DNA from: Mycobacteriales bacterium
Lineage (GTDB): Bacteria; Actinomycetota; Actinomycetes; JAFAQI01
Assembly: GCA_036267875.1 (NCBI GenBank)
Contig: DATAVE010000064.1
Span: 3,546-67,545, forward strand
Reading direction: 5' to 3'
Length of the DNA stretch: 64,000 nt
Positions 1 through 44,643 of the stretch are shown here, one piece after another. A program made the position numbers and the translations under genes. The notes beneath the pieces are model-generated. The model did no database searches. It was not told the DNA's origin and saw only the letters and a list, made by a program, of their open reading frames with translations. Each line of letters begins with the position of its first letter. The stretch's first letter is position 1.

Positions 1-850
1 CGGCCCGCACCGTCGTATCGAAGCCGTGCTCCTCGACCGTCGCACCGACGACGAGCTCGCCGCTCTTGCGCGGTACGAGATAGATCTCGTGACCGTTGAC
101 GAAGCCGCGGACGCTGCGGGTGGGCAGTTCGACGTCACCGCGGGTGCGCAGTCGGAGGATCTCTCCCTTCACCGGGCGGACTGGTGGTCGGGCCGAGTCG
201 GGGACCCCCTCGATCTGGGACGACCACGGTCCGGCGGCGAGGAGGACCGTCGGCGCAGAAAGCGTTGAGCCATCGCCCAGCCCTACGCCGCTGACCTTGT
301 CGTCGATCACGTCGAGTGCGGCGACTCGGTCATGAACGACGGCCGGGCCGAGTGCGGCAATCAGCGCGTCGGTGAGGCGGCGGTTGTCGACGGAGTGGTC
401 GCTGGCGGCGAGCAGTCCGCAGCGGATGTCCGGGCTCAGGGCCGGCTCGAGCGCCCGGGCCTCGCGCGACGTGAGCATCGAGGCGTCGAGTCCGAGCGAG
501 GTCTGGAAGTCGTGCAGGTCGACGAGTATCGCGCGATCGCCCGAATCGGTCGCGACGAGCAGCGTGCCTTCCGTCCGCAGTCCGACCGAGTGGCCGGTAG
601 CGGCTTCGAGGTCTGCCACGAAGGCTGGGTAACGACGCAGTGACTCGAGTGCGAGCTCGAGCAGCGGCTCCTCGCCGTACTTCACCTCGGTGACCGGCGC
701 GAGCATCCCGGCTGCCACATGCGAGGCCGCACTGGCCGGCGCCGGGTCGACTACCGCGACGCTCAGGCCCCGTTGGGTCAGCCGCCAACCGCAGGCCAGA
801 CCGATGACGCCGCCGCCGATCACGACGACGTCGCACGACCCGTCATCCAT
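1..850 (-). CDS. thiO: Glycine oxidase ThiO (FAD-dependent oxidoreductase). The 3' end lies beyond the window edge
   Basis: Minus-strand translation from ATG (plus 850-848) reads MDDGSCDVVVIGGGVIGLACGWRL... with a GxGxxG dinucleotide fold. The frame stays open to position 1. It is absent from the ORF track only because no stop lies in the window. It sits directly downstream of a TPP riboswitch. Confidence 0.8.
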   Translation of the reverse strand, partial: MDDGSCDVVVIGGGVIGLACGWRLTQRGLSVAVVDPAPASAASHVAAGMLAPVTEVKYGEEPLLELALESLRRYPAFVADLEAATGHSVGLRTEGTLLVATDSGDRAILVDLHDFQTSLGLDASMLTSREARALEPALSPDIRCGLLAASDHSVDNRRLTDALIAALGPAVVHDRVAALDVIDDKVSGVGLGDGSTLSAPTVLLAAGPWSSQIEGVPDSARPPVRPVKGEILRLRTRGDVELPTRSVRGFVNGHEIYLVPRKSGELVVGATVEEHGFDTTVRA

Positions 851-852
851 GG

Positions 853-945
853 CGACACGACTCCCTTCGCCGGCATTACCCGGATCAGGTTCAGCGGTCG
901 ACGGCTGTCGCCGTCCTCTCAGCCAAGTGGCTCCCGCGCAGACGC
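853..945 (-). promoter_or_regulatory. TPP (thiamine pyrophosphate) riboswitch in the thiO leader, ending at the start codon
   Basis: Reverse complement reads ...GGGAGCCACUUGGCUGAGAGG...GCUGAACCUGAUCCGGGUAAUGCCGGCGAAGGGAGUCGUGUCGCC-AUG. It carries the UGAGA box and the ACCUGAUC(C/U)GG(G/A)UAAUGCC(A/G)GCGAAGGGA core of the THI element. The AAGGGAG Shine-Dalgarno lies inside the aptamer 3' strand, suggesting translational control. Confidence 0.75.
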
Positions 946-971
946 CACGGTACGCCCGTAGGGTTGGCGAT

Positions 972-1327: not shown

Positions 1328-1969
1328 GTGGATCGCCGGACCAGGCTCGCTGACGCGAGGCTGTATCTCTGCACGGATGGCCGCCGCGATCGTGGTGACC
1401 TTGCGGACTTCCTCGACGCCGCGCTGGCTGGCGGGGTCGACATCGTCCAGCTGCGCGAGAAGGGTCTCGAAGCGCGCGAAGAGCTCGCCCTCGCCGAGGT
1501 GTTCGCGGATGCTGCGCGGCGTCACGGCGCGTTGTTCGCCGTGAATGACCGCGCCGACATTGCACGCGTCTGCGGCGCCGACGTGCTGCATGTCGGGCAG
1601 GGCGACCTGCCCGCAGACATCGCCCGCGAGCTTGTCGGCGACGATGTCCTGATCGGTCTCTCGTCGCACACCAACGACGAGGCGACCGCAGCTGCTACTT
1701 CGGCGGCTGTCGACTACTTCTGCGTCGGCCCGACCTGGCCGACACCGACCAAGCCAGGTCGGCCCGCGCCCGGCCTTCCGCTCGTCGCGCACACGGCCGG
1801 TCTTGCTGCCGACAAGCCCTGGTTCGCCATCGGCGGGATCGACCAAACGAACCTCGACCAGGTCATCCAGGCAGGTGCTCGCCGGATCGTCGTCGTGCGC
1901 GCCATCACCGAGGCCGAGAACCCGAAGGTGGCCGCGCAGTATCTCGCGCAGCGCGTCCGCGGCGCATGA
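1328..1969 (+). CDS. thiE: Thiamine-phosphate synthase ThiE
   Basis: 213 aa with a TIM-barrel ThiE-like sequence (…VDIVQLREK…[12 protein letters not shown]…FAIGGID…). Its stop overlaps the crtYc start (ATGA). Confidence 0.85.
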
Positions 1970-2280
1970 CCTATCTGCTCGTGATGGCGGGCTGCGCCGT
2001 CGTCACCCTTCCGCTGGAGCTCGTCCTACGGGCCCGCGTGTATGCGCGCTGGCGTCGCTTGCTGCTCACCTTGCTGCCGGTGCTCGCGGTCTTCGTCACG
2101 TGGGATGCACTGTCGATCCACGCCGGCTTCTGGAGCTATCGGCACCTGACCGGCGTACGGATCGGCAACCTGCCGATCGAAGAGCTGGTCTTCTTCGTCG
2201 TCGTACCGGTCTGTTCACTGCTGACGTTCGAGGCGGTGCGCCGGCTCCGTCCGTCGTGGTTCGGCGAGGACGACGAGTGA
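1966..2280 (+). CDS. crtYc: Lycopene cyclase domain protein, heterodimeric lycopene beta-cyclase subunit CrtYc
   Basis: 104-aa polytopic membrane protein with the PxE(E/D) motif ([13 protein letters not shown]). Overlapping start/stop codons with the second ~108-aa subunit. Confidence 0.7.
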
Positions 2281-2603
2281 CCTACACCGATGCGGCCGCG
2301 ATCGGTGTGGCCTTCGCCGTTGCCCTCGATCTGGTGGTGCTGCGGACGAATCTGTTGCGCCGCAAGGGATTCTGGGCCTCCTACGCCATCATCATCTGCT
2401 TCCAGCTCCTCGTGAACGGCATCCTCACCGGCGACAAGCTCGTCGTCTATTCGCCGCACGCGATCCTTGGCAACGCGACGCCTCACCTGTTCGGCGACTG
2501 GCGAATCGCCGATGGTCCGGTCGAGGACCTGCTGTTCGGCTTCTCTCTCGTCGTACAGACGCTGTCGTGGTGGACCTGGTGGGGCCGCCGTGCCCCGCAA
2601 TGA
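2277..2603 (+). CDS. crtYd: Lycopene cyclase domain protein, subunit CrtYd
   Basis: GTG at 2277 overlaps the crtYc stop (GTGA). Membrane protein with a second PxE(D) motif (GPVEDLLFGF). The ORF-track entry 1803..2603 is the same frame extended 5'. Confidence 0.7.
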   Translation: MTYTDAAAIGVAFAVALDLVVLRTNLLRRKGFWASYAIIICFQLLVNGILTGDKLVVYSPHAILGNATPHLFGDWRIADGPVEDLLFGFSLVVQTLSWWTWWGRRAPQ

Positions 2604-3651
2604 CGCGCTGCATGCCGCGCGGCTGACCGCACAGTTGCTTGCGGGCGACAAGGTCGGTACGCCGGAAGCCGTAGTCGAACGGGTGCTCGCCGTCCAGGGC
2701 CAGGATCCGCGCGGCTTTCGGCTAGCGATTCGCGCGCGGTCGGCCGGGCTGTCCGCGGCGGATGTCGACTCGGCGCTGACCGATCGACGATCGCTCGTCG
2801 TCACCTGGCTCAACCGGGGCACGCTGCACCTCGTCCGAGCAGAGGACTACTGGTGGCTGCATCCATTGACCACCCCGCAGCTCACAACCGGCAGTGAGAC
2901 CCGGCTTCGCCAGGAGGGTGTGTCGCCGATTCAGGCCGAGCGTGGTGTCGAGATCATCGCGGCCGAGGTCGCGCGTGGCCCGCGGACTCGTGACGAGCTG
3001 CGGGACGCGCTGGACAACGCGGGCATTGTCACCGCCGGACAGGCGACCTATCACCTGCTCTTCCTCGCGGCGCTGCGCGGCGACCTGGTGCGAGGACCGA
3101 TGCGTGGCAATGAGCAGGCGTTCGTCGGCGCCGTGGACTGGTTGGGTCCGGCGCCTGAGCCGTTGGAGCGATCGGAGGCTCTCGCAACGCTCGCCCTGCG
3201 CTACCTCGCGGGCCACGGTCCGGCGGCCGCCCAGGACCTGGCGAAGTGGGCGGGGATCACCTTGCGTGATGCCCGAGCCGGGCTTGCCGCGGGGGACGGT
3301 GTCGTCGAGATCTCAGACGGCCTGTTCGGCCTTGCTGATCGAGAGCAACCTGCGCCCATCCCGTCGCCGCGGTTGCTCGGACCCTTCGACCCGCTCCTGC
3401 TCGGATGGGCATCGCGCGCCGACGTCGTCGGCCTTGCGACGGGCCTCGTCACGAACAATGGCCTGTTCCGGCCCTTTGCGATGGTCGGCGGCCGGGCCGT
3501 CGCCACCTGGGGCCTAGCCGGCGGCAAGGTCGAGATCAAGCTGTTTGAGCCCATCAAGGTCTCTGCGCAAAAGGCGCTGATGGCAGACGCGCGCGACGTG
3601 CTTCGCTACCTGAGTCTTCCCGATGCGGATGGCACATGCGTACTGCCATAG
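2590..3651 (+). CDS. Winged-helix DNA-binding domain protein (YcaQ / DUF1006 family, putative DNA glycosylase)
   Basis: The ORF 2467..3651 C-terminal body resembles the YcaQ crosslink-repair glycosylase family. Start placed at GTG 2590, overlapping the crtYd stop. Confidence 0.5.
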   Translation: MPRNDALHAARLTAQLLAGDKVGTPEAVVERVLAVQGQDPRGFRLAIRARSAGLSAADVDSALTDRRSLVVTWLNRGTLHLVRAEDYWWLHPLTTPQLTTGSETRLRQEGVSPIQAERGVEIIAAEVARGPRTRDELRDALDNAGIVTAGQATYHLLFLAALRGDLVRGPMRGNEQAFVGAVDWLGPAPEPLERSEALATLALRYLAGHGPAAAQDLAKWAGITLRDARAGLAAGDGVVEISDGLFGLADREQPAPIPSPRLLGPFDPLLLGWASRADVVGLATGLVTNNGLFRPFAMVGGRAVATWGLAGGKVEIKLFEPIKVSAQKALMADARDVLRYLSLPDADGTCVLP

Positions 3652-3673
3652 CGATACCTATGTGCCATGCGCT

Positions 3674-4600
3674 CTAGCGGGCGCGGCGAGCTCGTACGAC
3701 GGCGGGACCCGCGACCGCGAGGCGTCGTGGGGTGCTGACGGCCGCGCGTCGGTCGAGCACTCGGTAGCCGGACCGCTCGACCGCATCGAGGATGCCGCGA
3801 TAGAGCCGGAACGCCGTACGCACGCAGTCGCGCGACGCCGGTCGGAGCAACTCGATCCCCGGCTCGGCGGATCGGTAAAGCTCGTGCGCGCGGCTGATCT
3901 CGAATGCCAGCAGCGCCTTGATGTTTGCGTCGATCTTGCGAGCACCCAGGTCATCCGTTGTCACTCCGAACGCCGCGAGGTCCTCCTTCGGCAGATACAC
4001 CCGGCCGCGGTCGAGGTCCTCACCGAAATCGCGGATGAAGTTCGTCAGCTGGAACGCGAGGCCGAGAGTGCGGGCATACGGCTCCGCGTCGGCCTTGGCA
4101 CCGCGCACCGTGCCCAGGACAGGGACGAGCTGTGATCCGATCGCCGCTGCGGAGCCGTTCATGTAGCCGAGCAGGTCTTCCCACGTCGCGTACTCAGACG
4201 TCGTGAGATCCATCCGCATCGACGCCAGGAAGTCGTCGAACGGCCCGAGCGGGATGTTGTTGCGGACGATCGTGTCGTGCACTGCCGGCATCACTGGATC
4301 CGAGCCGGTGCCACGCACCAGCATGTTCGTCCACTCGGTGAGCTGTCGCTCGCGCTCAGCAACATCGAGTGCCGGATCTATCGAGTCGACGATCTCGTCA
4401 GCGCGCCGCGCGAACCCGTACAACGCGTGCACCGGCGGTCGCTTCGCCGGTGGAAGCAGCAGCGTCGCGAGATAGAAGGTGCGGCCGTGGGCTGCGTTGA
4501 CCGCGCGGCACGCGCGGTACGACGCGCGGAGCTGCGGGTCGTTGATCCCGGCCGCGTCGAGGGCTCGCCACAGGTTCATCTCTGACTCAGCTTCACGCAA
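3674..4600 (-). CDS. crtB: Phytoene synthase CrtB (squalene/phytoene synthase family)
   Basis: 308 aa ...YLATLLLPPAKRPPVHALYGFARRADEIVD... with typical trans-IPPS head-to-head motifs. Start overlaps the crtI stop. Confidence 0.85.
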   Translation of the reverse strand: MREAESEMNLWRALDAAGINDPQLRASYRACRAVNAAHGRTFYLATLLLPPAKRPPVHALYGFARRADEIVDSIDPALDVAERERQLTEWTNMLVRGTGSDPVMPAVHDTIVRNNIPLGPFDDFLASMRMDLTTSEYATWEDLLGYMNGSAAAIGSQLVPVLGTVRGAKADAEPYARTLGLAFQLTNFIRDFGEDLDRGRVYLPKEDLAAFGVTTDDLGARKIDANIKALLAFEISRAHELYRSAEPGIELLRPASRDCVRTAFRLYRGILDAVERSGYRVLDRRAAVSTPRRLAVAGPAVVRARRAR

Positions 4601-17904: not shown

Positions 17905-18336
17905 GTGTTTCTTGGCACCTTCACGCCTCGCCTTGACGAGAAAGGCCGGCTGTTCCTGCCCGCCAAGTTCCGCGACGAGCTCGCGGCAGGCCTCGTGATC
18001 ACCCCCGGCCAGGAACGCTGCCTGCGCGTGTTCCCGATGGCGGAGTTCGCCCGGGTCACCGAGGTCGCCCGAGAGGCGCCGACAGCACTGCGCGAGACCC
18101 GCGACTTCCACCGAATGGCATTCGGTGACGCTCACGACGAGGTACCGGACCGGCAGGGCCGCGTCACCGTGCCGCCCGCCCTGCGCGAGTACGCCGGGCT
18201 GACCCGCGACTGTGCGGTCGTCGGGCTCAACAGCTACCTCGAGATCTGGGACGACGCAGCGTGGCGGGAGTACAAGGCCAGCCAGGCCGACGGCTATGCC
18301 TCGCTGTCCGAGCAGGGGGTGCCAGGCCTGTTCTAG
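17905..18336 (+). CDS. mraZ: Transcriptional regulator MraZ
   Basis: 143 aa with a duplicated SpoVT/AbrB-like MraZ fold ([23 protein letters not shown]...). GTG start with a GGGAGGTGGAG RBS. Confidence 0.9.
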
Positions 18337-18502
18337 AGGCCCAGTGAGCAGAGCCGCTTCTAGCGAACGTGCAGGTGTGTGTCGTGGCCCCTGCCGACGT
18401 CCCCTGAGATCACTTCCCCGGTCTCAGGCGTCGGCGGCAGGGACCAGGCCACACACCAGGTTCAGATTCCAAATCCCAGCGAGAGCAGCCCGAAAGGACG
18501 TC

Positions 18503-19459
18503 ATGGACCTGGCTCCTGAGCACGTCCCTGTGCTGCTCGATCGCGTGCTGGAGCTGCTGGCGCCTGCTGCGAGCCGCGATGGCGCTGTGGTCGTGGACGC
18601 GACGCTCGGCTTGGGTGGGCACACCGAGGCGCTACTCGAGCGTCATCCCGGACTGCGGATGATCGGGATCGACCGGGATCCGAGCGCGTTGGCGCGCAGC
18701 GCCACGCGGCTGGCCGTCCACGCAGACCGCGTACAGCTGGTCCACGGTGTCTACGACACGCTTCCTGAGGTACTCGACGCGGCTGGTGTCGATCGTGTGG
18801 ACGGCGTGCTGTTCGACCTCGGCGTCTCTTCGATGCAGCTCGACGCTGACGACCGCGGCTTCTCCTACTCCCGCGACACCGCGCTCGACATGCGGATGGA
18901 CCCCACCCGCGGGCTCACCGCGGCCGACGTGGTCAACACCTACGACGCCCGCGACCTCGCGCACATCCTGTCGAGGTACGGCGAGGAGCGCTTCGCTCGT
19001 CGGATCGCTGACGCGATCGTTCGTGAGCGTGCGACGCAGCCGTTGACTTCGTCAGCTCGGCTGGCCGAGCTGGTGCGTGACGCGGTTCCGGCAGCGACCC
19101 GGCGTACTGGTGGCCACCCGGCCAAACGCACCTTCCAGGCGCTGCGCATCGAGGTCAACGACGAGCTCGGTGCGCTGGAGCGGGCCCTCCCGGCAGCCGT
19201 CACCGCACTTCGGGTCGGCGGCCGGTTGGTCGTCCTCGCCTACCAGTCGCTCGAAGACCGAATCGTCAAGCGCACGCTTGCCGCCGGTACGTCGGTGACT
19301 GCACCGGCTGACCTACCCGTCGTCCCGGAGAGTGCTCAGCCCCGGCTGCGGCTACTCACCCGCGGCGCCGAGCAGGCCTCCGAGGCCGAGATCGAAGAGA
19401 ACCCACGCGCAGCCTCCGTCCGGCTTCGTGCGGTCGAGCGGATCAGAGAAGCGGCATGA
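18503..19459 (+). CDS. rsmH: 16S rRNA (cytosine1402-N4)-methyltransferase RsmH (MraW)
   Basis: [19 protein letters not shown]...DATLGLGGH. The ORF-track 5' extension overlaps mraZ, so the start is taken at ATG 18503. Confidence 0.9.
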
Positions 19460-19974
19460 GCGCCACGTATCCGCTGCGGAAGCCCGCAACTGCGAAGCCG
19501 CGTCCTGCCGCGTCTCGCCCGCGCCTCACGGTCATCTCCTCGACGAAGCACAAGGTCGCGCGCGGTCCGTTCATCGTGCTCGTCAGCGCCCTGCTCATCG
19601 GCGGTCTGCTCGCTCTGTTGATGCTGCACACGCTTGCGGCACAGGACGCCTTCCGCCAGACGACGCTTCAGCAGAAGCTCGCAACACTGACCGACCAGCA
19701 GCAGCAGCTCGAACAGCAGGTGCAGCTCGACTCGGCACCGGCTGCCCTCGAGGCCCGGGCTCGCGCGCTCGGGATGGTGCCTTCGACGATCACGTCGTAC
19801 CACCGAGGGGCCAACGGGACGACGATCGCTCGCGAGCTGCCGACCTCACAGGTCGCCACTGTCGACACGACGCCGACAACGGCTCCGTCTACGGCGCCAA
19901 GCACCGACCCGACGACGCCACCGTCAGCGAAGGACTCACCGAATCCGCGGGCGAAGGCATCCACGCGTCCATGA
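19456..19974 (+). CDS. ftsL: Cell division protein FtsL
   Basis: 172 aa with basic N-terminus, a single TM ([19 protein letters not shown]), a coiled coil, and a Pro/Thr-rich tail. Its position between rsmH and ftsI supports the call. Confidence 0.7.
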
Positions 19975-28483: not shown

Positions 28484-29572
28484 ATGCGTGCCGTCCTGGC
28501 CGGTGGCGGAAGTGCCGGCCACGTCTCGCCGTTGCTCGCGCTGGCGGATCGTCTGGTTGCGGATGACCCGGCGACCGAGATCCTCGCGCTGGGCACCACG
28601 ACCGGCCTGGAAGCTCGGCTGGTGCCGGCGAGGGGCTACCGGCTGCATCCCGTGCCGAAGGTTCCGCTGCCCCGGCGTCCCTCCACCGCACTGCTGCGGC
28701 TGCCCGTCAACCTGCGCGCCGCGGTCCGGGAAGCCCGCCGGGCGATCGATGAGATCGACGCCCAGGTCGTCGTGGGATTCGGCGGCTACGTCTCGGCCCC
28801 GGCGTACCTCGCCGCCCGTCAGGCCAAGGTGCCGATCGTCGTCCATGAGCAGAACAGCCGTCCTGGCTTCGCCAACCGGCTCGGCGCGCGGCTGACCCGC
28901 TCGGTCGCGGTCACCTTTCCCGACACGCCGCTCCGTCACGCCATCCGTACCGGCATGCCGCTGCGAGCCGAGATTGTCGGTCTCGATGTCGCGACTGCCC
29001 GATCGGGCGCGCGAGAGACCTTTGGCCTCGACCCGGCGCGGACGACGTTGCTGGTATTCGGCGGCTCGCTGGGGGCGCAGCGGCTCAATGACGTCGTCCC
29101 ACAGATCGCGGTAGATCTTCGCCGGCGCGGCATCCAGGTGTTGCATGTCACCGGGGCGGGCAAGGCGGTCGAGGTGAGCGCAGTCGAGGCCGGCGCCCCG
29201 GCCTACCTCGCCGTGGACTACGTCGACCAGATGGAGCTCGCTTACGCCGCCGCGGACTTCGTGATCGGGCGGGCCGGTGCCAACACGGTCAGCGAACTCA
29301 CCGCGCTCGGCCTGCCGGCGGCGTACGTTCCGCTGCCGATCGGCAACGGCGAGCAGCGGCTGAACGCGCTACCGGTTGTCGAGGCGGGTGGCGGACTGAT
29401 GGTCGCGGACGCCGACCTTGACCGCTCGTGGCTCCTCGATCAAGTACTCCCGCTGATGGACGATCCAGAGAAGCTGCGGACGATGGGGGCAGCCGCGCGC
29501 GGCTTCGGGCGGCTGGATGCCGACCGGCTGCTCGCCGACCTCGTTCGCGCAGCTATCGGAGGCTCTCGTTGA
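28484..29572 (+). CDS. murG: UDP-GlcNAc--undecaprenyl-PP-MurNAc-pentapeptide GlcNAc transferase MurG
   Basis: MRAVLAGGGSAGHVSPLLALA... GT28 fold. Confidence 0.9.
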   Translation: MRAVLAGGGSAGHVSPLLALADRLVADDPATEILALGTTTGLEARLVPARGYRLHPVPKVPLPRRPSTALLRLPVNLRAAVREARRAIDEIDAQVVVGFGGYVSAPAYLAARQAKVPIVVHEQNSRPGFANRLGARLTRSVAVTFPDTPLRHAIRTGMPLRAEIVGLDVATARSGARETFGLDPARTTLLVFGGSLGAQRLNDVVPQIAVDLRRRGIQVLHVTGAGKAVEVSAVEAGAPAYLAVDYVDQMELAYAAADFVIGRAGANTVSELTALGLPAAYVPLPIGNGEQRLNALPVVEAGGGLMVADADLDRSWLLDQVLPLMDDPEKLRTMGAAARGFGRLDADRLLADLVRAAIGGSR

Positions 29573-30990
29573 GCGGGATCGTCGAGCCGGTCGGCGACAT
29601 TCCGGCGGCCGAGGAGCTCGGCCGGGTCCACCTGATGGGCATCGGCGGCGCCGGGATGAGCGGCATCGCCCGGATCCTGCTCGCAAGAGGGCTGGCGGTG
29701 AGCGGCTGCGACGCCAAGGAGTCAGCCGCGCTCGCCGCGTTGCGCCCGCTCGGGGTCGAGGTGTCGGTCGGCCACGACCCGGCCCACTGCGAAACCGCTG
29801 ACACCGTCGTCGTATCGAGCGCGATTCGGCCAGCCAACCCGGAGCTGGTCCACGCGCGTGAGCTGGGCCGGCTGGTGCTCCCGCGGGCGGCGGCGCTGGC
29901 ATCGGTCATGGCGGACCGGATCGGGCTGGCGATCGCCGGCACCCACGGCAAGACGACGACCACCTCGATGCTCACGGTCGCGATGCACGCCTGCGGCCGC
30001 GACCCGAGCTATGCCATCGGCGGGGACCTCAACGAACCAGGCTCGAACGCGCACCACGGCACAGGCGAGTTCTTCGTCGCGGAGGCCGATGAGAGCGATC
30101 GGTCCTTCCTGCTGCTCTCGCCCCAGGGCGCGGTCATCACGAATGTCGAGCCGGATCACCTGGACAACTACGGCGACTCTGACGCCGTCCACGCCGCCTT
30201 CGAGGCGTTCATCGACCGGATCGACGTGGGCGGCCCGCTGCTGCTCGGGGCGGACGATCCCGGCTCGCTCGCCCTCGTCGAACCGGCTCGTGCCCGTGGC
30301 CTCGAGGTGCGAACCTTCGGACAGTCACCGGACGCCGACGTCCGGGTCGACGACCTGGAAGTCAACCCCGCCGGCTCGCGCTTCGAGCTAGTGGTCGGCG
30401 GCCGCCGGCTCGGTCCGGTGGAGCTGACCGTGCCGGGTGCTTTCAACGCCGTCAACGCCGCCGGAGCCCTCGGCCTCGGTCTCGCTGTCGGCCTGCCGTA
30501 CGCCGACATGGTCCGGGGGCTCGCGGCCTTTTCCGGGGCCCGCCGACGGTTCGAGCTCAAGGGCATCGCCGGGGGAGTGCGGGTCTTCGACGACTACGCC
30601 CATCACCCCACCGAGGTCGCCCGAGGCGCTCTCGTCGCGGCCCGCGGCGCGGCCCGCGACGGCCGGGTGATCGCGGTGTTCCAGCCGCACCTCTACAGCC
30701 GCACTCAACGCTTCGCCACCGACTTCGGGGAGGCACTGGGGGCAGCCGACGTGGTTGTCGTCATGGAGGTCTACGCCGCTCGTGAAGACCCGCTGCCAGG
30801 GGTTACCGGAAGGCTGATCGCCGACGCGATTGCGTTGCCGGCAGGTCGGGTCCACTTCGAGCCGTCCTGGTCCAGCGTGCCCAAGCTCGTGGCGAAACTC
30901 ACAAGGCCTGGCGACGTGGTGATCACCATCGGAGCGGGAGACGTCACGATGATCGGCCCCGCCGTCCTGGACGAGCTCGCCAGCCGCTGA
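29569..30990 (+). CDS. murC: UDP-N-acetylmuramate--L-alanine ligase MurC
   Basis: HLMGIGGAGMSGIA and GTHGKTTTTSM motifs. TTG 29569 overlaps the murG stop, whereas the ORF-track start 29428 would overlap murG extensively. Confidence 0.85.
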   Translation: MSGIVEPVGDIPAAEELGRVHLMGIGGAGMSGIARILLARGLAVSGCDAKESAALAALRPLGVEVSVGHDPAHCETADTVVVSSAIRPANPELVHARELGRLVLPRAAALASVMADRIGLAIAGTHGKTTTTSMLTVAMHACGRDPSYAIGGDLNEPGSNAHHGTGEFFVAEADESDRSFLLLSPQGAVITNVEPDHLDNYGDSDAVHAAFEAFIDRIDVGGPLLLGADDPGSLALVEPARARGLEVRTFGQSPDADVRVDDLEVNPAGSRFELVVGGRRLGPVELTVPGAFNAVNAAGALGLGLAVGLPYADMVRGLAAFSGARRRFELKGIAGGVRVFDDYAHHPTEVARGALVAARGAARDGRVIAVFQPHLYSRTQRFATDFGEALGAADVVVVMEVYAAREDPLPGVTGRLIADAIALPAGRVHFEPSWSSVPKLVAKLTRPGDVVITIGAGDVTMIGPAVLDELASR

Positions 30991-31298
30991 GCGCGGATTT
31001 CCTTGACCTTAGGTCGAGATAAAGACTGCCGCCCTGGCGAACTTATGCACGAGTACGCTGCAATGATGCTTCTTGGCCTTGACCACAGATCGGGCTCACC
31101 CGTATTGTCCCCGGGCTTCGAGCGGGGATTCCCCAGCCCTCCACTTGAGGTTGAGAGTTTTTCCCCGACTCTCGAGGACACTCGAGCCAGTCATCGGAGC
31201 TCGGTGACCGCAGTGTCGGCGACACCTTCCCCGGGTCGCCGGCGTGCGGTCACCGCCGTGGACAGCGATCCCGCTCCGCCGTCTCAAATCGTGGAGGC
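30991..31298 (+). promoter_or_regulatory. Non-coding ftsZ leader/promoter region, lower GC, occupying the position where ftsQ is expected
   Basis: 308 nt between the murC stop and the ftsZ start. The only ORF (31003..31302) lacks GC3 codon bias. Candidate promoters: TTGACC (31007) and TTGACC (~31077) followed by TATTGT. Confidence 0.5.
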
Positions 31299-32564
31299 AT
31301 GAAGCTCGTGGCAGCACCCCAGAACTACCTCGCCGTGATCAAGGTCGTCGGCATCGGCGGTGGTGGCGTCAACGCCGTCAACCGCATGATCGAAGTCGGC
31401 CTCAAGGGCGTCGAGTTCATCGCCGTCAACACTGACGCGCAGGCCCTCCTGATGAGCGACGCCGACGTGAAGCTGGACGTCGGCCGTGACCTCACCCGTG
31501 GCCTCGGCGCAGGTGCCGACCCGGCCGTCGGGCGACAGGCCGCGGAGGACAACATCGAGGAGATCGAGGAGGTCCTCAAGGGGGCCGACATGGTCTTCGT
31601 GACAGCCGGCGAGGGCGGCGGCACCGGGACCGGTGGGGCTCCGGTCGTGGCGCGGCTGGCTCGGGAGCAGGGCGCTCTCACCATCGGCGTGGTCACCCGG
31701 CCGTTCTCCTTCGAGGGCAAGCGCCGCTCGTCCCAGGCCGAGGAGGGGATTGCCGCACTCCGCGAGGAGGTGGACACCCTCATCGTGATCCCGAACGACC
31801 GCTTGCTGTCGATCAGCGACAAGCGGGTCAGCGTCCTGGAGGCGTTCCACTCGGCCGACCAGGTGCTGCTATCGGGCGTCCAGGGCATCACCGACCTGAT
31901 CACGACCCCGGGTCTGATCAACCTCGACTTCGCCGACGTGAAGTCGGTCATGACCGGGGCGGGCACCGCCCTGATGGGCATCGGTTCCGCCCGCGGCGAC
32001 GACCGCGCGCTGGTGGCGGCAGAGTTTGCCATCGCGAGTCCGTTACTCGAGGCCTCGATCGAGGGCGCCCACGGCGTCCTCATGAACATTTCCGGCGGTA
32101 GTGACCTCGGCCTGTTCGAGATCCACGAGGCGGCGCAGCTCGTCGCTGAGGCGGCTCACCCAGAGGCCAACATCATCTTCGGTGCGGTCATCGATGACGC
32201 CCTCGGCGACGAGGTGCGGGTCACCGTCATCGCGGCCGGCTTCGATGGCGGCATGCCGCGAGCCCGGCTCTTCGAGCCGCGGCGTACCGAGACTCGGGCG
32301 CCAGTCGAACGCGAGCGACCGGCGCCAGTGGTCCAGTTCGACGACGATGTCGACGAGGAGGACGACGGTCTGCTGCTTGCCGAGCTGACCGAAGAGCCGC
32401 CGCCCCCGCCGGTGCGTAGTCCGCGCCGGGCGCCTGCGCCGGAGCCGGCTCCCGAGCCGACCCGCGAGCGCGAACCGGCCCGCGCGTCGCGGCCGACCCC
32501 GCCCCGTCGCACGATCGTGTTCGACGACTCCGACGATCTCGACGTTCCCGACTTCCTGAAGTAG
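31299..32564 (+). CDS. ftsZ: Cell division GTPase FtsZ
   Basis: [18 protein letters not shown] and [13 protein letters not shown] tubulin signature. Pro/Glu-rich C-terminal linker and conserved C-terminal peptide [10 protein letters not shown]. Confidence 0.95.
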
Positions 32565-42824: not shown

Positions 42825-43747
42825 GCCAGAGCCGGGGCCTCGAGCTACCGGAGGGCCTTGACGGCTCCCGGGTCGATGCGGCAGTCGCTCGGCTCTTCGG
42901 GCTGTCGCGGACTGCGGCGGCGGACCTCGTCGCCTCAGGTGGCGTCCTGCTCGAAGGCGTTGCTCCGGCAAAGTCGCAGCGGGTCAACGCAGGCGAGTGG
43001 ATCGAGGTCGAGCTTCCCGAGCCCGTCACGGTGACCGTGTCAGCTGAGCTCGTCGACGGGCTGCGGATCGTGTACGACGACGACGACATCGTCGTGGTGG
43101 ACAAGCCGGTCGGAGTTGCGGCGCATCCCAGCCCGGGATGGTCCGGCCCGACGGTGATCGGTGGTCTGGCCGGCGCGGGCTATCGCATTGCGACCTCGGG
43201 CGCGGCCGAGCGGCAGGGCGTGGTGCACCGTCTCGACGTCGGCACCACCGGGCTGATGGTCGTCGCCAAGAGCGAGCTCGCGTACTCGGTGTTGAAGGAC
43301 GCTTTCCGCAACCGGACGGTCGACAAGCGATACCGCGCGCTGGTCCAGGGCCATCCGGACCCGAGCCGCGGGACGATCGACGCGCCGATCGGCCGGCACC
43401 CGAGTCACGACTACCGCTGGGCGGTAGTCAGCGAAGGCCGCCCGAGCGTGACGCACTACGAGACTGTCGAGGCGTTCCGGGCGGCGAGCCTGCTCGACAT
43501 CCGACTGGAAACCGGCCGTACCCATCAGATCCGGGTGCACATGTCCGCGGTCCGGCACCCGTGTGTCGGCGACCTCACCTACGGCGCTGATCCGACCCTT
43601 GCGGCGCGGATCGGCCTCGAGCGGCAGTGGCTGCATGCCCGCAGCCTCGCGTTCGAGCATCCGACCGAGCATCGGCCGGTCGAGTTCGTCAGCGAGCCCC
43701 CGGCTGACCTGAACAAGGCGCTGGCAGCTCTGGCTGAACAGTCATGA
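42821..43747 (+). CDS. rluD: 23S rRNA pseudouridine synthase RluD-family (RluA superfamily)
   Basis: S4 domain followed by the [15 protein letters not shown] catalytic motif. ATGA overlap with the lspA stop. Confidence 0.85.
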
Positions 43748-44643
43748 GCGGCGACCGCCAGCCCCGGTTCGCCGGGCTCGACGAGCGGGCGCTGCCCAAG
43801 TTGGCCGGGATCTTGCGTGGTATCGGGTCGGCTGCGGGCGCCGTCGTGGGTCCGCGTAGTGTCGCGGGTCGCGTCGTCGGTCCGTGGATCCGGCGCGAAC
43901 CTGTGATCGCGATCTCGCTGGTGTCCGTCGCCTTCGCGGCGGTGCTGATCGTCGCGACCGGCGGGGATGACCACGGCGCCGTACGCCCGTCGAAGCAGTC
44001 GGTCGGACCGGTGCTCCCGACCGCACACCGGCTCGGGCCGGCTCCGGGTGCTTCAGTGCCGTCGTACCTGGCTGCCGCAGCCACGCGACGTGACGCGCTG
44101 CAGTCGCTCGGCGCCTCGGAGCACGTAGCTGCGCTCGTCGACTTCACCGCCTACATCAGCCCACTTGCGATCGACACGTTGCTCGCCACGACGCCTGACG
44201 TGACAGTGCTACGCGGGTTTGCCCGGGTGCCGCCCCCGGTCGATGCGTTGGTGCATGTCCTGGTGACGTCGGTTGATGCGAACCTGTCGACGGAGCTGGC
44301 GAGCGCGCAAGCCGCCGCGAGCCAGATCGCGGAGCACTACAAGAGCGAGATCACGCAGTCGCTGGCGAGCCCCTCGACGGAGCTGAACGACGAGATCGAC
44401 GCTGGGGCTGCCGCGGCGGCGGATGCCCGAGTCGATGCGGCAGGTCTTAGCTCCGACTGCGGCTGTGTGTTCGCGTTGATCGTGTCGGGCCCGGTGTCGG
44501 AGCTTCAGGAGCTCGCCGGCGCAGCATCGGTACGCGTCCTCGATCCGGCGCCTGTTGACACCTCGATCGAGTCGTTGATGGTGGTGCCGCTCGAGCCGCA
44601 GGACACCAAGACGGCGTCGGAGCTGGCCTACGCCGGGGACTAG
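43744..44643 (+). CDS. Hypothetical single-pass membrane protein (N-in, ~230-aa extracytoplasmic domain)
   Basis: ATGA overlap with the rluD stop. One TM helix ([21 protein letters not shown]). Ala/Ser-rich ectodomain with a CGC motif. No recognisable family. Confidence 0.5.

Follow-up and report, generated by a model that had tools for sequence, protein, structure and literature searches.

The division and cell wall (dcw) gene cluster on a 64,000-nucleotide stretch of DNA from a Mycobacteriales bacterium (GenBank assembly GCA_036267875.1, contig DATAVE010000064.1, positions 3,546 to 67,545; hereafter the window) raises a simple question: where is ftsQ? In the canonical cluster this gene follows murC, whereas in the window murC leads directly into the predicted promoter region of ftsZ. 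FtsQ is regarded as a core scaffold of the divisome that recruits and regulates FtsWI as part of the FtsQLB complex and is believed to connect the early with the late division proteins; in pathogenic actinobacteria, it has been suggested as a target for drugs. An earlier note on this locus had suggested that the lineage lost or relocated ftsQ and that a long, structured leader became the main control point of ftsZ, or that a membrane protein encoded elsewhere in the window stands in for FtsQ. We consider it probable (roughly three chances in four) that a clean deletion removed ftsQ from the dcw cluster in the ancestor of a soil-dwelling clade of uncultured Actinomycetes, drawn here to include genomes whose MurC is at least about 74% identical to that of the window, and that the spacer now separating murC from ftsZ is an ordinary ftsZ promoter region.

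Absence of ftsQ from its canonical position

The murC gene ends at position 30990 and ftsZ was called from the ATG at 31299, leaving a gap of 308 nt (317 nt to the GTG at 31308) at the site that ftsQ occupies in other Actinomycetes. The GC content of this spacer is 0.62, compared with about 0.70 in its flanks, and its only long open reading frame (ORF; 31003-31302, 99 amino acids) has a GC content at third codon positions (GC3) of 0.61, compared with 0.87 for both murC and ftsZ. No reading frame in the spacer is conserved: similarity among relatives is found in all six frames and the frame shifts between sequences, so that conservation acts at the nucleotide and not at the peptide level, and a small conserved ORF can be ruled out. 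The earlier description of the gap as non-coding, lower in GC and without GC3 bias in its 99-codon ORF is thus accurate.

A hidden Markov model (HMM) was trained on 52 FtsQ sequences taken from related actinobacterial loci; Pfam confirmed nine of them as POTRA_1 plus FtsQ_DivIB_C. Complete FtsQ copies of relatives, at loci with enough upstream sequence, score E ≤ 1e-45 with this model; the best value in a six-frame search of the entire 64-kb window was E = 0.64. Furthermore, a Pfam scan of essentially all called genes of the window gave no match to PF08478 (FtsQ-type POTRA) or PF03799 (FtsQ/DivIB C-terminal beta), and tblastn of 54 FtsQ sequences against the gap returned only short low-complexity matches on both strands. 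An ftsQ remnant or pseudogene in the gap, including the frameshifted copy that the earlier note had already judged unlikely, is ruled out by the tblastn and HMM searches, which found only low-complexity noise. A known RNA family was also rejected: Rfam 15 yielded no family at or near its gathering score in the spacer, and the only matches, to miRNA precursors and hairpin-like, scored far below threshold. Together with the size of the gap, these searches confirm that ftsQ is truly absent from the slot between murC and ftsZ.

The 3' end of murC is informative in this respect. MurC of the window ends just past the conserved ...GPAVLDELASR (30940-30990, compared with loci L083, L084, L001 and L004) and lacks a low-complexity C-terminal tail of 10 to 25 residues, which in ftsQ-bearing relatives overlaps the start of ftsQ. 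The missing tail fits a deletion that clipped the end of murC. In an alignment of the deletion boundary with the ftsQ-bearing loci L083 and L084, the breakpoints could not be placed because the sequences are too diverged.

We then compared the arrangement with that of other actinobacteria. All 75 GTDB species-representative loci with both genes have a murC-ftsZ distance of at least 845 nt and an FtsQ match in between, and the metagenome loci follow the same pattern with one exception (L141); overall, about 140 other actinobacterial loci examined have ftsQ between murC and ftsZ. The exception, L141 (169-5000), has another Mur-ligase gene between murC and ftsZ, encoded on the opposite strand (2184-3767), and no FtsQ match; this may be a rearrangement or a mis-assembly.

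Relatives that lack ftsQ in this slot came from a MurC protein search, as FtsZ-based scans of GTDB and metagenome sequences, each limited to 600 candidate stretches, gave distant relatives only. The search revealed a dense set of uncultured relatives, labeled "Mycobacteriales bacterium" at NCBI, and the clade amounts to more than 70 MurC clusters. The comparison of murC-ftsZ spacing in close relatives that the earlier note had proposed gave a uniform result. In all six relatives examined at MurC identities of 92 to 74%, ftsZ likewise comes directly after murC, with gaps of 378 nt (L163, JGI, MurC 92%), 449 nt (L164, GCA_036268405.1, 89%), 277 nt (L165, a 118-kb ENA contig, 84%), 343 nt (L166, GCA_025980465.1, 80%), 295 nt (L167, a 1.03-Mb contig, ENA ERZ25039538 contig_8542, 76%) and 270 nt (L168, JGI, 74%). 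The FtsQ HMM found no match in any of the six within up to 10 kb on each side of murC (for L166, as far as the contig end about 0.6 kb downstream). In contrast, ftsQ is present between murC and ftsZ, as a POTRA_1 gene, in L169 (JGI, MurC 70%), and it is also present in L083 and L084 (MurC 67 to 69%). Since six diverged relatives lack the gene at this site and it is kept at about 70% MurC identity, the deletion is an old one common to related lineages. The absence of ftsQ from the slot is a trait of the whole clade, old and stable, and not peculiar to the genome of the window. The earlier suggestion of a lineage that relocated or lost ftsQ therefore holds as far as absence from the slot is concerned, but it missed that the whole clade is affected.

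Metagenome assemblies carry a general risk of error, and the junction could trivially be explained by a wrong assembly, by chimerism of the contig or by an ftsQ pseudogene with a frameshift. Assemblies from other samples, however, contain the identical junction. Two JGI contigs from other samples encode an FtsZ protein identical to that of the window. One of them, L081, spans murD to pgeF, agrees with the window at 99.94% over 8121 nt and contains the 308-nt junction; the other, L082, reaches 99.46% identity. Moreover, the same architecture recurs in the six diverged relatives, which derive from JGI, ENA and NCBI, a space of 308 nt is too small for a gene of about 750 nt, and tblastn detected no ftsQ remnant. 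The chance of an artefact is negligible in our view.

The spacer as a predicted promoter region of ftsZ

The spacer was compared with the region between ftsQ and ftsZ in clusters that retain ftsQ. In 141 such loci this region has a median length of 210 nt (interquartile range, 173 to 302 nt), and in the closest ftsQ-bearing relatives it measures 263 nt (L084), 280 nt (L083) and 384 nt (L169). With 308 nt, the spacer of the window is within the usual lengths and hence, in length, an ordinary ftsZ upstream region.

A putative sigma-70-type promoter, P1, was found by consensus search at 31079-31108, the sole match between positions 30800 and 31400, where shuffled sequences would give 0.1. Its -35 element (GGCCTTGACC) and its -10 element (TAnnGT(CC)) are kept at a fixed spacing of 18 nt, inside the 16 to 18 nt typical of SigA promoters, in the window, L163 to L168 and L169 (alignment A2), and occur in similar form in L083 and L084 (alignment A1). 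P1 may therefore be a conserved SigA-type promoter.

Downstream of P1 we identified a candidate operator for FtsR, the MerR-type activator of ftsZ, whose operators in Corynebacterium glutamicum (AACCCTAAAGTAAAGGTTGAGGGTA) and Mycobacterium tuberculosis (AACTCTAAGCCTATGGTTGAGGTTT) have been defined experimentally (PMC6683498). The 25-bp box in the window, AGCCCTCCACTTGAGGTTGAGAGTT, is an imperfect inverted repeat that agrees with the C. glutamicum site at 17 of 25 positions and with the M. tuberculosis site at 15 of 25, by our count. It lies 139 to 148 nt before the ftsZ start codon (31299 or 31308), inside the published range of 41 to 193 bp upstream of the start codon (PMC6683498). In its right half, GGTTGAG.GT, and in its distance from the gene, the predicted box resembles the ftsZ promoters activated by FtsR (Cg1631 in C. 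glutamicum, Rv1828 in M. tuberculosis; PMC6683498), while its left half is more diverged (AGCCCTC versus AACCCTA). The box occurs once in the window and is kept in all relatives examined. No MerR-family gene was found in the Pfam scans of window genes. The position of P1 on the upstream side of the box weighs against the predicted promoter arrangement.

The leader of ftsZ is structured, as the earlier note had assumed. The segment from 31112 to 31310 has a minimum free energy of -105.7 kcal/mol (z = -5.7 versus shuffled sequence) and contains a 22-pair hairpin whose loop, CUUCCCC, is invariant. Across nine sequences (alignment A4), 81.8% of the cells of the helix are paired (70% in shuffled sequences), with double-sided changes in 11 pairs. 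The inner stem (pairs 18/42 to 24/36) is paired in all nine, with GC>AU, CG>UA and AU>GC swaps. The hairpin also occurs in the ftsQ-bearing loci L169 and L083, and a similar one was seen by eye in L084. By pairing with the ribosome-binding site GGAGG, CCUUC may act as an anti-Shine-Dalgarno mimic. In 169 actinobacterial loci, CTTCCCC occurs about 13 times more often in the 250 nt before ftsZ (0.86 per kb) than at other places on that strand (0.065 per kb); it is present there in 32 loci, mostly 50 to 92 nt before the start codon, and corresponds to the hairpin loop in the clade of the window.

All three elements (promoter, FtsR box and hairpin) are found in the ftsQ-bearing L169, and the promoter and FtsR box, together with a matching hairpin, in L083 and L084. 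As they are common to ftsQ-bearing relatives, none of them is an adaptation to the loss of ftsQ. The idea that a long structured leader became the main control point of ftsZ after that loss does not hold, as the length is normal and the elements are shared. Judged by its sequence, the spacer is a conserved promoter and leader of the kind usual for ftsZ.

One part of the spacer is specific to the clade. Just past murC, a conserved non-coding block (31013-31047), consisting of GTYGAGRTARAGACT and, about 11 nt later, GAACTTATG, is kept in the window and in L163 to L168 but absent from the ftsQ-bearing L169; it occurs once in the window. This unexplained block, and the fact that the region folds much better than shuffled sequence, could be taken to mean that the spacer encodes a new product, a small protein or a trans-acting small RNA, that took over part of the role of FtsQ. 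Such a product is highly improbable: the spacer has no conserved frame and a GC3 of 0.61, its structured part, the hairpin, is common to ftsQ-bearing relatives, no Rfam family matches, and an RNA is implausible in place of a periplasmic scaffold protein.

The start of ftsZ probably needs correction. The called ATG at 31299 is only 1 nt past the Shine-Dalgarno sequence GGAGG (31293-31297), whereas the in-frame GTG at 31308 is 10 nt past it. The start region GTGGCAGCACC is kept across the clade and the GTG is conserved in all relatives. Given this conservation and the better spacing, GTG 31308 is probably the true start and ftsZ three codons shorter than called.

On the reading that a clean deletion created the junction, the event would have removed ftsQ together with the short C-terminal tail of murC and left the ancestral upstream region of ftsZ intact. 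Transcription of ftsZ would then follow two routes. No terminator-like site was found after murC, which makes read-through from the dcw operon into ftsZ likely; in addition, ftsZ would be transcribed from one or more FtsR-controlled promoters of its own, as in relatives that keep ftsQ.

The surrounding dcw cluster

Except for the missing ftsQ, the locus conforms to the canonical actinobacterial dcw cluster in all features that were tested; gene order, strand and gene sizes all agree. The window is a high-GC actinobacterial chromosome segment syntenic with the dcw region of M. tuberculosis and the part downstream of it. It begins with a Rv2175c-like gene, thiE, carotenoid genes, metF, dinB and MoxR/DUF58/TgpA genes, followed from position 17905 by mraZ-rsmH-ftsL-ftsI-murE-murF-mraY-murD-ftsW-murG-murC, then ftsZ-pgeF-yggS-sepF-yggT-divIVA, and finally ileS, a DksA/TraR-like gene, lspA, rluD, dnaE and the his and trp operons. 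The synteny with Rv2150c–Rv2166c stated in the earlier note was borne out: from mraZ to ftsZ and on through pgeF-yggS-sepF-yggT-divIVA, the same genes occur in the same order except for ftsQ, and the flanks match as well (Rv2175c-like gene, MoxR/DUF58/TgpA, ileS, lspA, rluD, dnaE, his and trp operons). The tight packing that the note described is also present, but the genes do not overlap throughout from ftsL to murC, since gaps of 13 to 42 nt separate ftsI from murE, mraY from murD and ftsW from murG. The Pfam scan supports mraZ, rsmH, ftsI, ftsW, murG, murC, ftsZ, pgeF, yggS, sepF, yggT and divIVA. Assignment of murE, murF, mraY and murD was based on ORF size and position and on annotated homologs in L164, and for murD additionally on the JGI Pfam annotation of the near-identical L081. 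Coordinates of individual features are given in Table 1.

Table 1. Features of the window, with positions counted from its first nucleotide
Feature	Position	Strand	Evidence or remark
TPP riboswitch	845-947	-	Rfam match above gathering score; thiE-like gene nearby at 1328-1969 (+)
mraW RNA motif	18369-18466	+	Rfam match above gathering score; between mraZ and rsmH
ftsL	19456-19974	+	Sub-threshold Pfam DivIC match (E 1.9e-06, 28.0 bits; gathering cutoff 28.9)
murG	28484-29572		Pfam
murC (UDP-N-acetylmuramate--L-alanine ligase)	29569-30990	+	Pfam Mur_ligase, Mur_ligase_M and Mur_ligase_C (3/3 domains)
Non-coding murC-ftsZ spacer	30991-31298	+	Site of ftsQ in other Actinomycetes
Clade-specific conserved non-coding block, GTCGAGATAAAGACT ... 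GAACTTATG	31013-31047	+	Alignment A2
Sigma-70-type promoter-like site P1, TTGACC-N18-TATTGT	31079-31108	+	Consensus search and alignment
Candidate FtsR-type (MerR-family) operator box	31135-31159	+	Match to known FtsR sites
5'-untranslated region hairpin, 22 pairs	31203-31254	+	Fold and covariation; invariant loop at 31226-31232
ftsZ	31299-32564	+	Pfam Tubulin and FtsZ_C; likely true start GTG 31308
299-aa bitopic membrane protein	43744-44643	+	Tested as FtsQ analogue and rejected

Several other loci show an altered context of ftsZ or of the dcw genes. In L085 (714-2306) a PAS-GGDEF gene and in L086 (135-1445) a multicopper oxidase gene lie directly upstream of ftsZ, which is uncoupled from murC and ftsQ in both. 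Two loci of Actinomycetota, L008 and L064, have no murC or FtsQ match in the 1 to 2.9 kb upstream of ftsZ. Insertions are tolerated by the dcw cluster at other places as well: in L170 (6858-10926), ftsQ and ftsZ are set apart by four unrelated genes (DinB/MST-like, MarR, metallo-beta-lactamase-fold and an unknown of 794 aa), and in L171 and L173 (about 1560-3600) an NTP-transferase and an epimerase gene are found between murG and murC.

Loss, replacement or relocation of FtsQ

The earlier note had pointed to the 299-aa protein encoded at 43744-44643 as a possible FtsQ analogue and had proposed a structure-based search with it. In an AlphaFold2 model (pLDDT 86.7), the protein has one transmembrane helix (residues 53 to 71) and an extracytoplasmic domain of about 225 aa, and some of its homologs lie on the same contig as a dcw cluster without ftsQ (P0012 on that of L165, 118,403 nt; P0021 on that of P0074, 41,755 nt). 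The bitopic topology, however, is common to many unrelated proteins and is the only likeness to FtsQ. No match was obtained with Pfam or with the FtsQ HMM, comparison of the family (alignment A3) with FtsQ (alignment A5) by hhalign gave a probability of 0.13%, and a Foldseek search of the PDB with the model reached a best E-value of 0.27. Instead of a POTRA plus beta-domain fold, the ectodomain is confidently predicted to adopt a ferredoxin-like fold that resembles the subtilisin propeptide, with an inserted long helical hairpin. The gene lies 11 kb from ftsZ in a context unrelated to division and is translationally coupled to rluD, with overlapping start and stop codons. All 62 detected homologs of the family are hypothetical proteins from metagenomes or metagenome-assembled genomes. 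The protein was therefore ruled out as FtsQ-like, and replacement of FtsQ by this or another window protein of unknown function is a very remote prospect.

Absence of ftsQ from the dcw cluster leaves two main explanations, loss of FtsQ from the genome or relocation, in which a functional and possibly fast-evolving FtsQ is encoded elsewhere and the dcw copy was lost after duplication or transposition. A homolog search with FtsQ of L169 gave 154 matches; among the best 120, identities ranged down to 43%. Thirteen of these 120 lie on contigs equal in size to contigs with a MurC of 70 to 73% identity, and in these genomes ftsQ is beside murC. Among contigs with a MurC of at least 74% identity, the sole size shared with one of the 120 matches was 2,050 nt; it belongs to a different source and is too short for both genes. 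The large contigs of the clade (1.03 Mb, 385 kb, 125 kb and 118 kb) carried none of the 120. Each of the three largest FtsQ clusters (27, 25 and 14 members) includes sequences whose canonical position was verified, and the unverified clusters have six members at most. The four matches that were looked up, among them L170 with its four inserted genes, all lie directly after murC in a dcw cluster, upstream of ftsZ; a sizeable coherent FtsQ group outside the canonical context was thus not seen. FtsQ proteins of L169, L083 and L084 are about 50% identical to one another. Considering this divergence and the more than 70 MurC clusters of the clade, a normally diverging ortholog should have appeared many times, but it did not. 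Together with the lack of FtsQ in the 64-kb window and around murC in the six relatives, the search results lean towards real loss or a strongly accelerated copy.

Several points weigh against this reading and in favor of relocation. FtsQ is nearly universal in Actinomycetes, being present in about 140 of the loci examined, and it is essential in mycobacteria. FtsL is its partner in characterized divisomes, and FtsW and FtsI likewise work with FtsQ. As the clade keeps FtsL, FtsW and FtsI, a hidden copy is quite plausible. The C-terminal motif of FtsL (ALGMVP...NG) is under purifying selection in the clade, being kept in the window and in those ftsQ-less relatives that cover this part of FtsL (L165, L167 and L168). 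As a sign of a surviving FtsQ this conservation is uninformative, since the motif also contacts FtsB and FtsI in FtsQLBWI structures. The DNA inspected amounts to 64 kb of the window genome and up to 10 kb on each side of murC per relative, a small fraction of each genome; the homolog search was word-filtered and used the nearest available FtsQ as query; and matching of contig sizes detects only FtsQ copies on the same contig as the dcw cluster. Finally, FtsQ is poorly conserved and its orthologs are hard to detect (PMC8871954). On balance, we give even odds to true loss, i.e., that the genomes of the clade have no canonical FtsQ at all, and a somewhat smaller though substantial chance to a relocated or strongly diverged copy elsewhere in the genome.

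Natural loss of ftsQ is biologically plausible in view of Streptomyces coelicolor, whose ftsQ-null mutants McCormick and Losick are said to have found viable in 1996; ftsL/divIC mutants of the same species were reportedly described by Bennett et al. in 2007 (cited in PMC4255298). Filamentous Streptomyces needs no division for growth. These are laboratory mutants of an actinomycete that lives without FtsQ, whereas the absence described here is natural, old and clade-wide. A precedent for a missing "core" divisome component in an otherwise conserved dcw cluster, though in another phylum and for another component, is Clostridioides difficile, which lacks the canonical FtsW/FtsI pair and for which the replacement was found experimentally (PMC10693644). 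In the searchable literature, we found no report of an actinobacterial lineage that naturally lacks ftsQ.

If ftsQ sits elsewhere in the genome, the finding shrinks to a minor change of gene order. In either case, the region in front of ftsZ appears as a conserved regulatory module (predicted promoter, FtsR box and CUUCCCC hairpin) that would have outlasted the deletion intact. It is conceivable, at slightly less than even chance, that a clade of walled soil Actinomycetes of about genus-to-family breadth has dispensed with FtsQ while keeping FtsL, FtsW, FtsI, FtsZ, SepF and DivIVA. A dcw cluster that is stable without ftsQ across a diversified clade represents a natural experiment on whether FtsL, FtsB and FtsWI can assemble without FtsQ, and the clade provides a defined set of genomes in which a replacement for FtsQ can be sought. 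If full loss proves true, the divisome of these bacteria would assemble without the scaffold that is believed to bridge its early and late proteins and on which mycobacteria depend.

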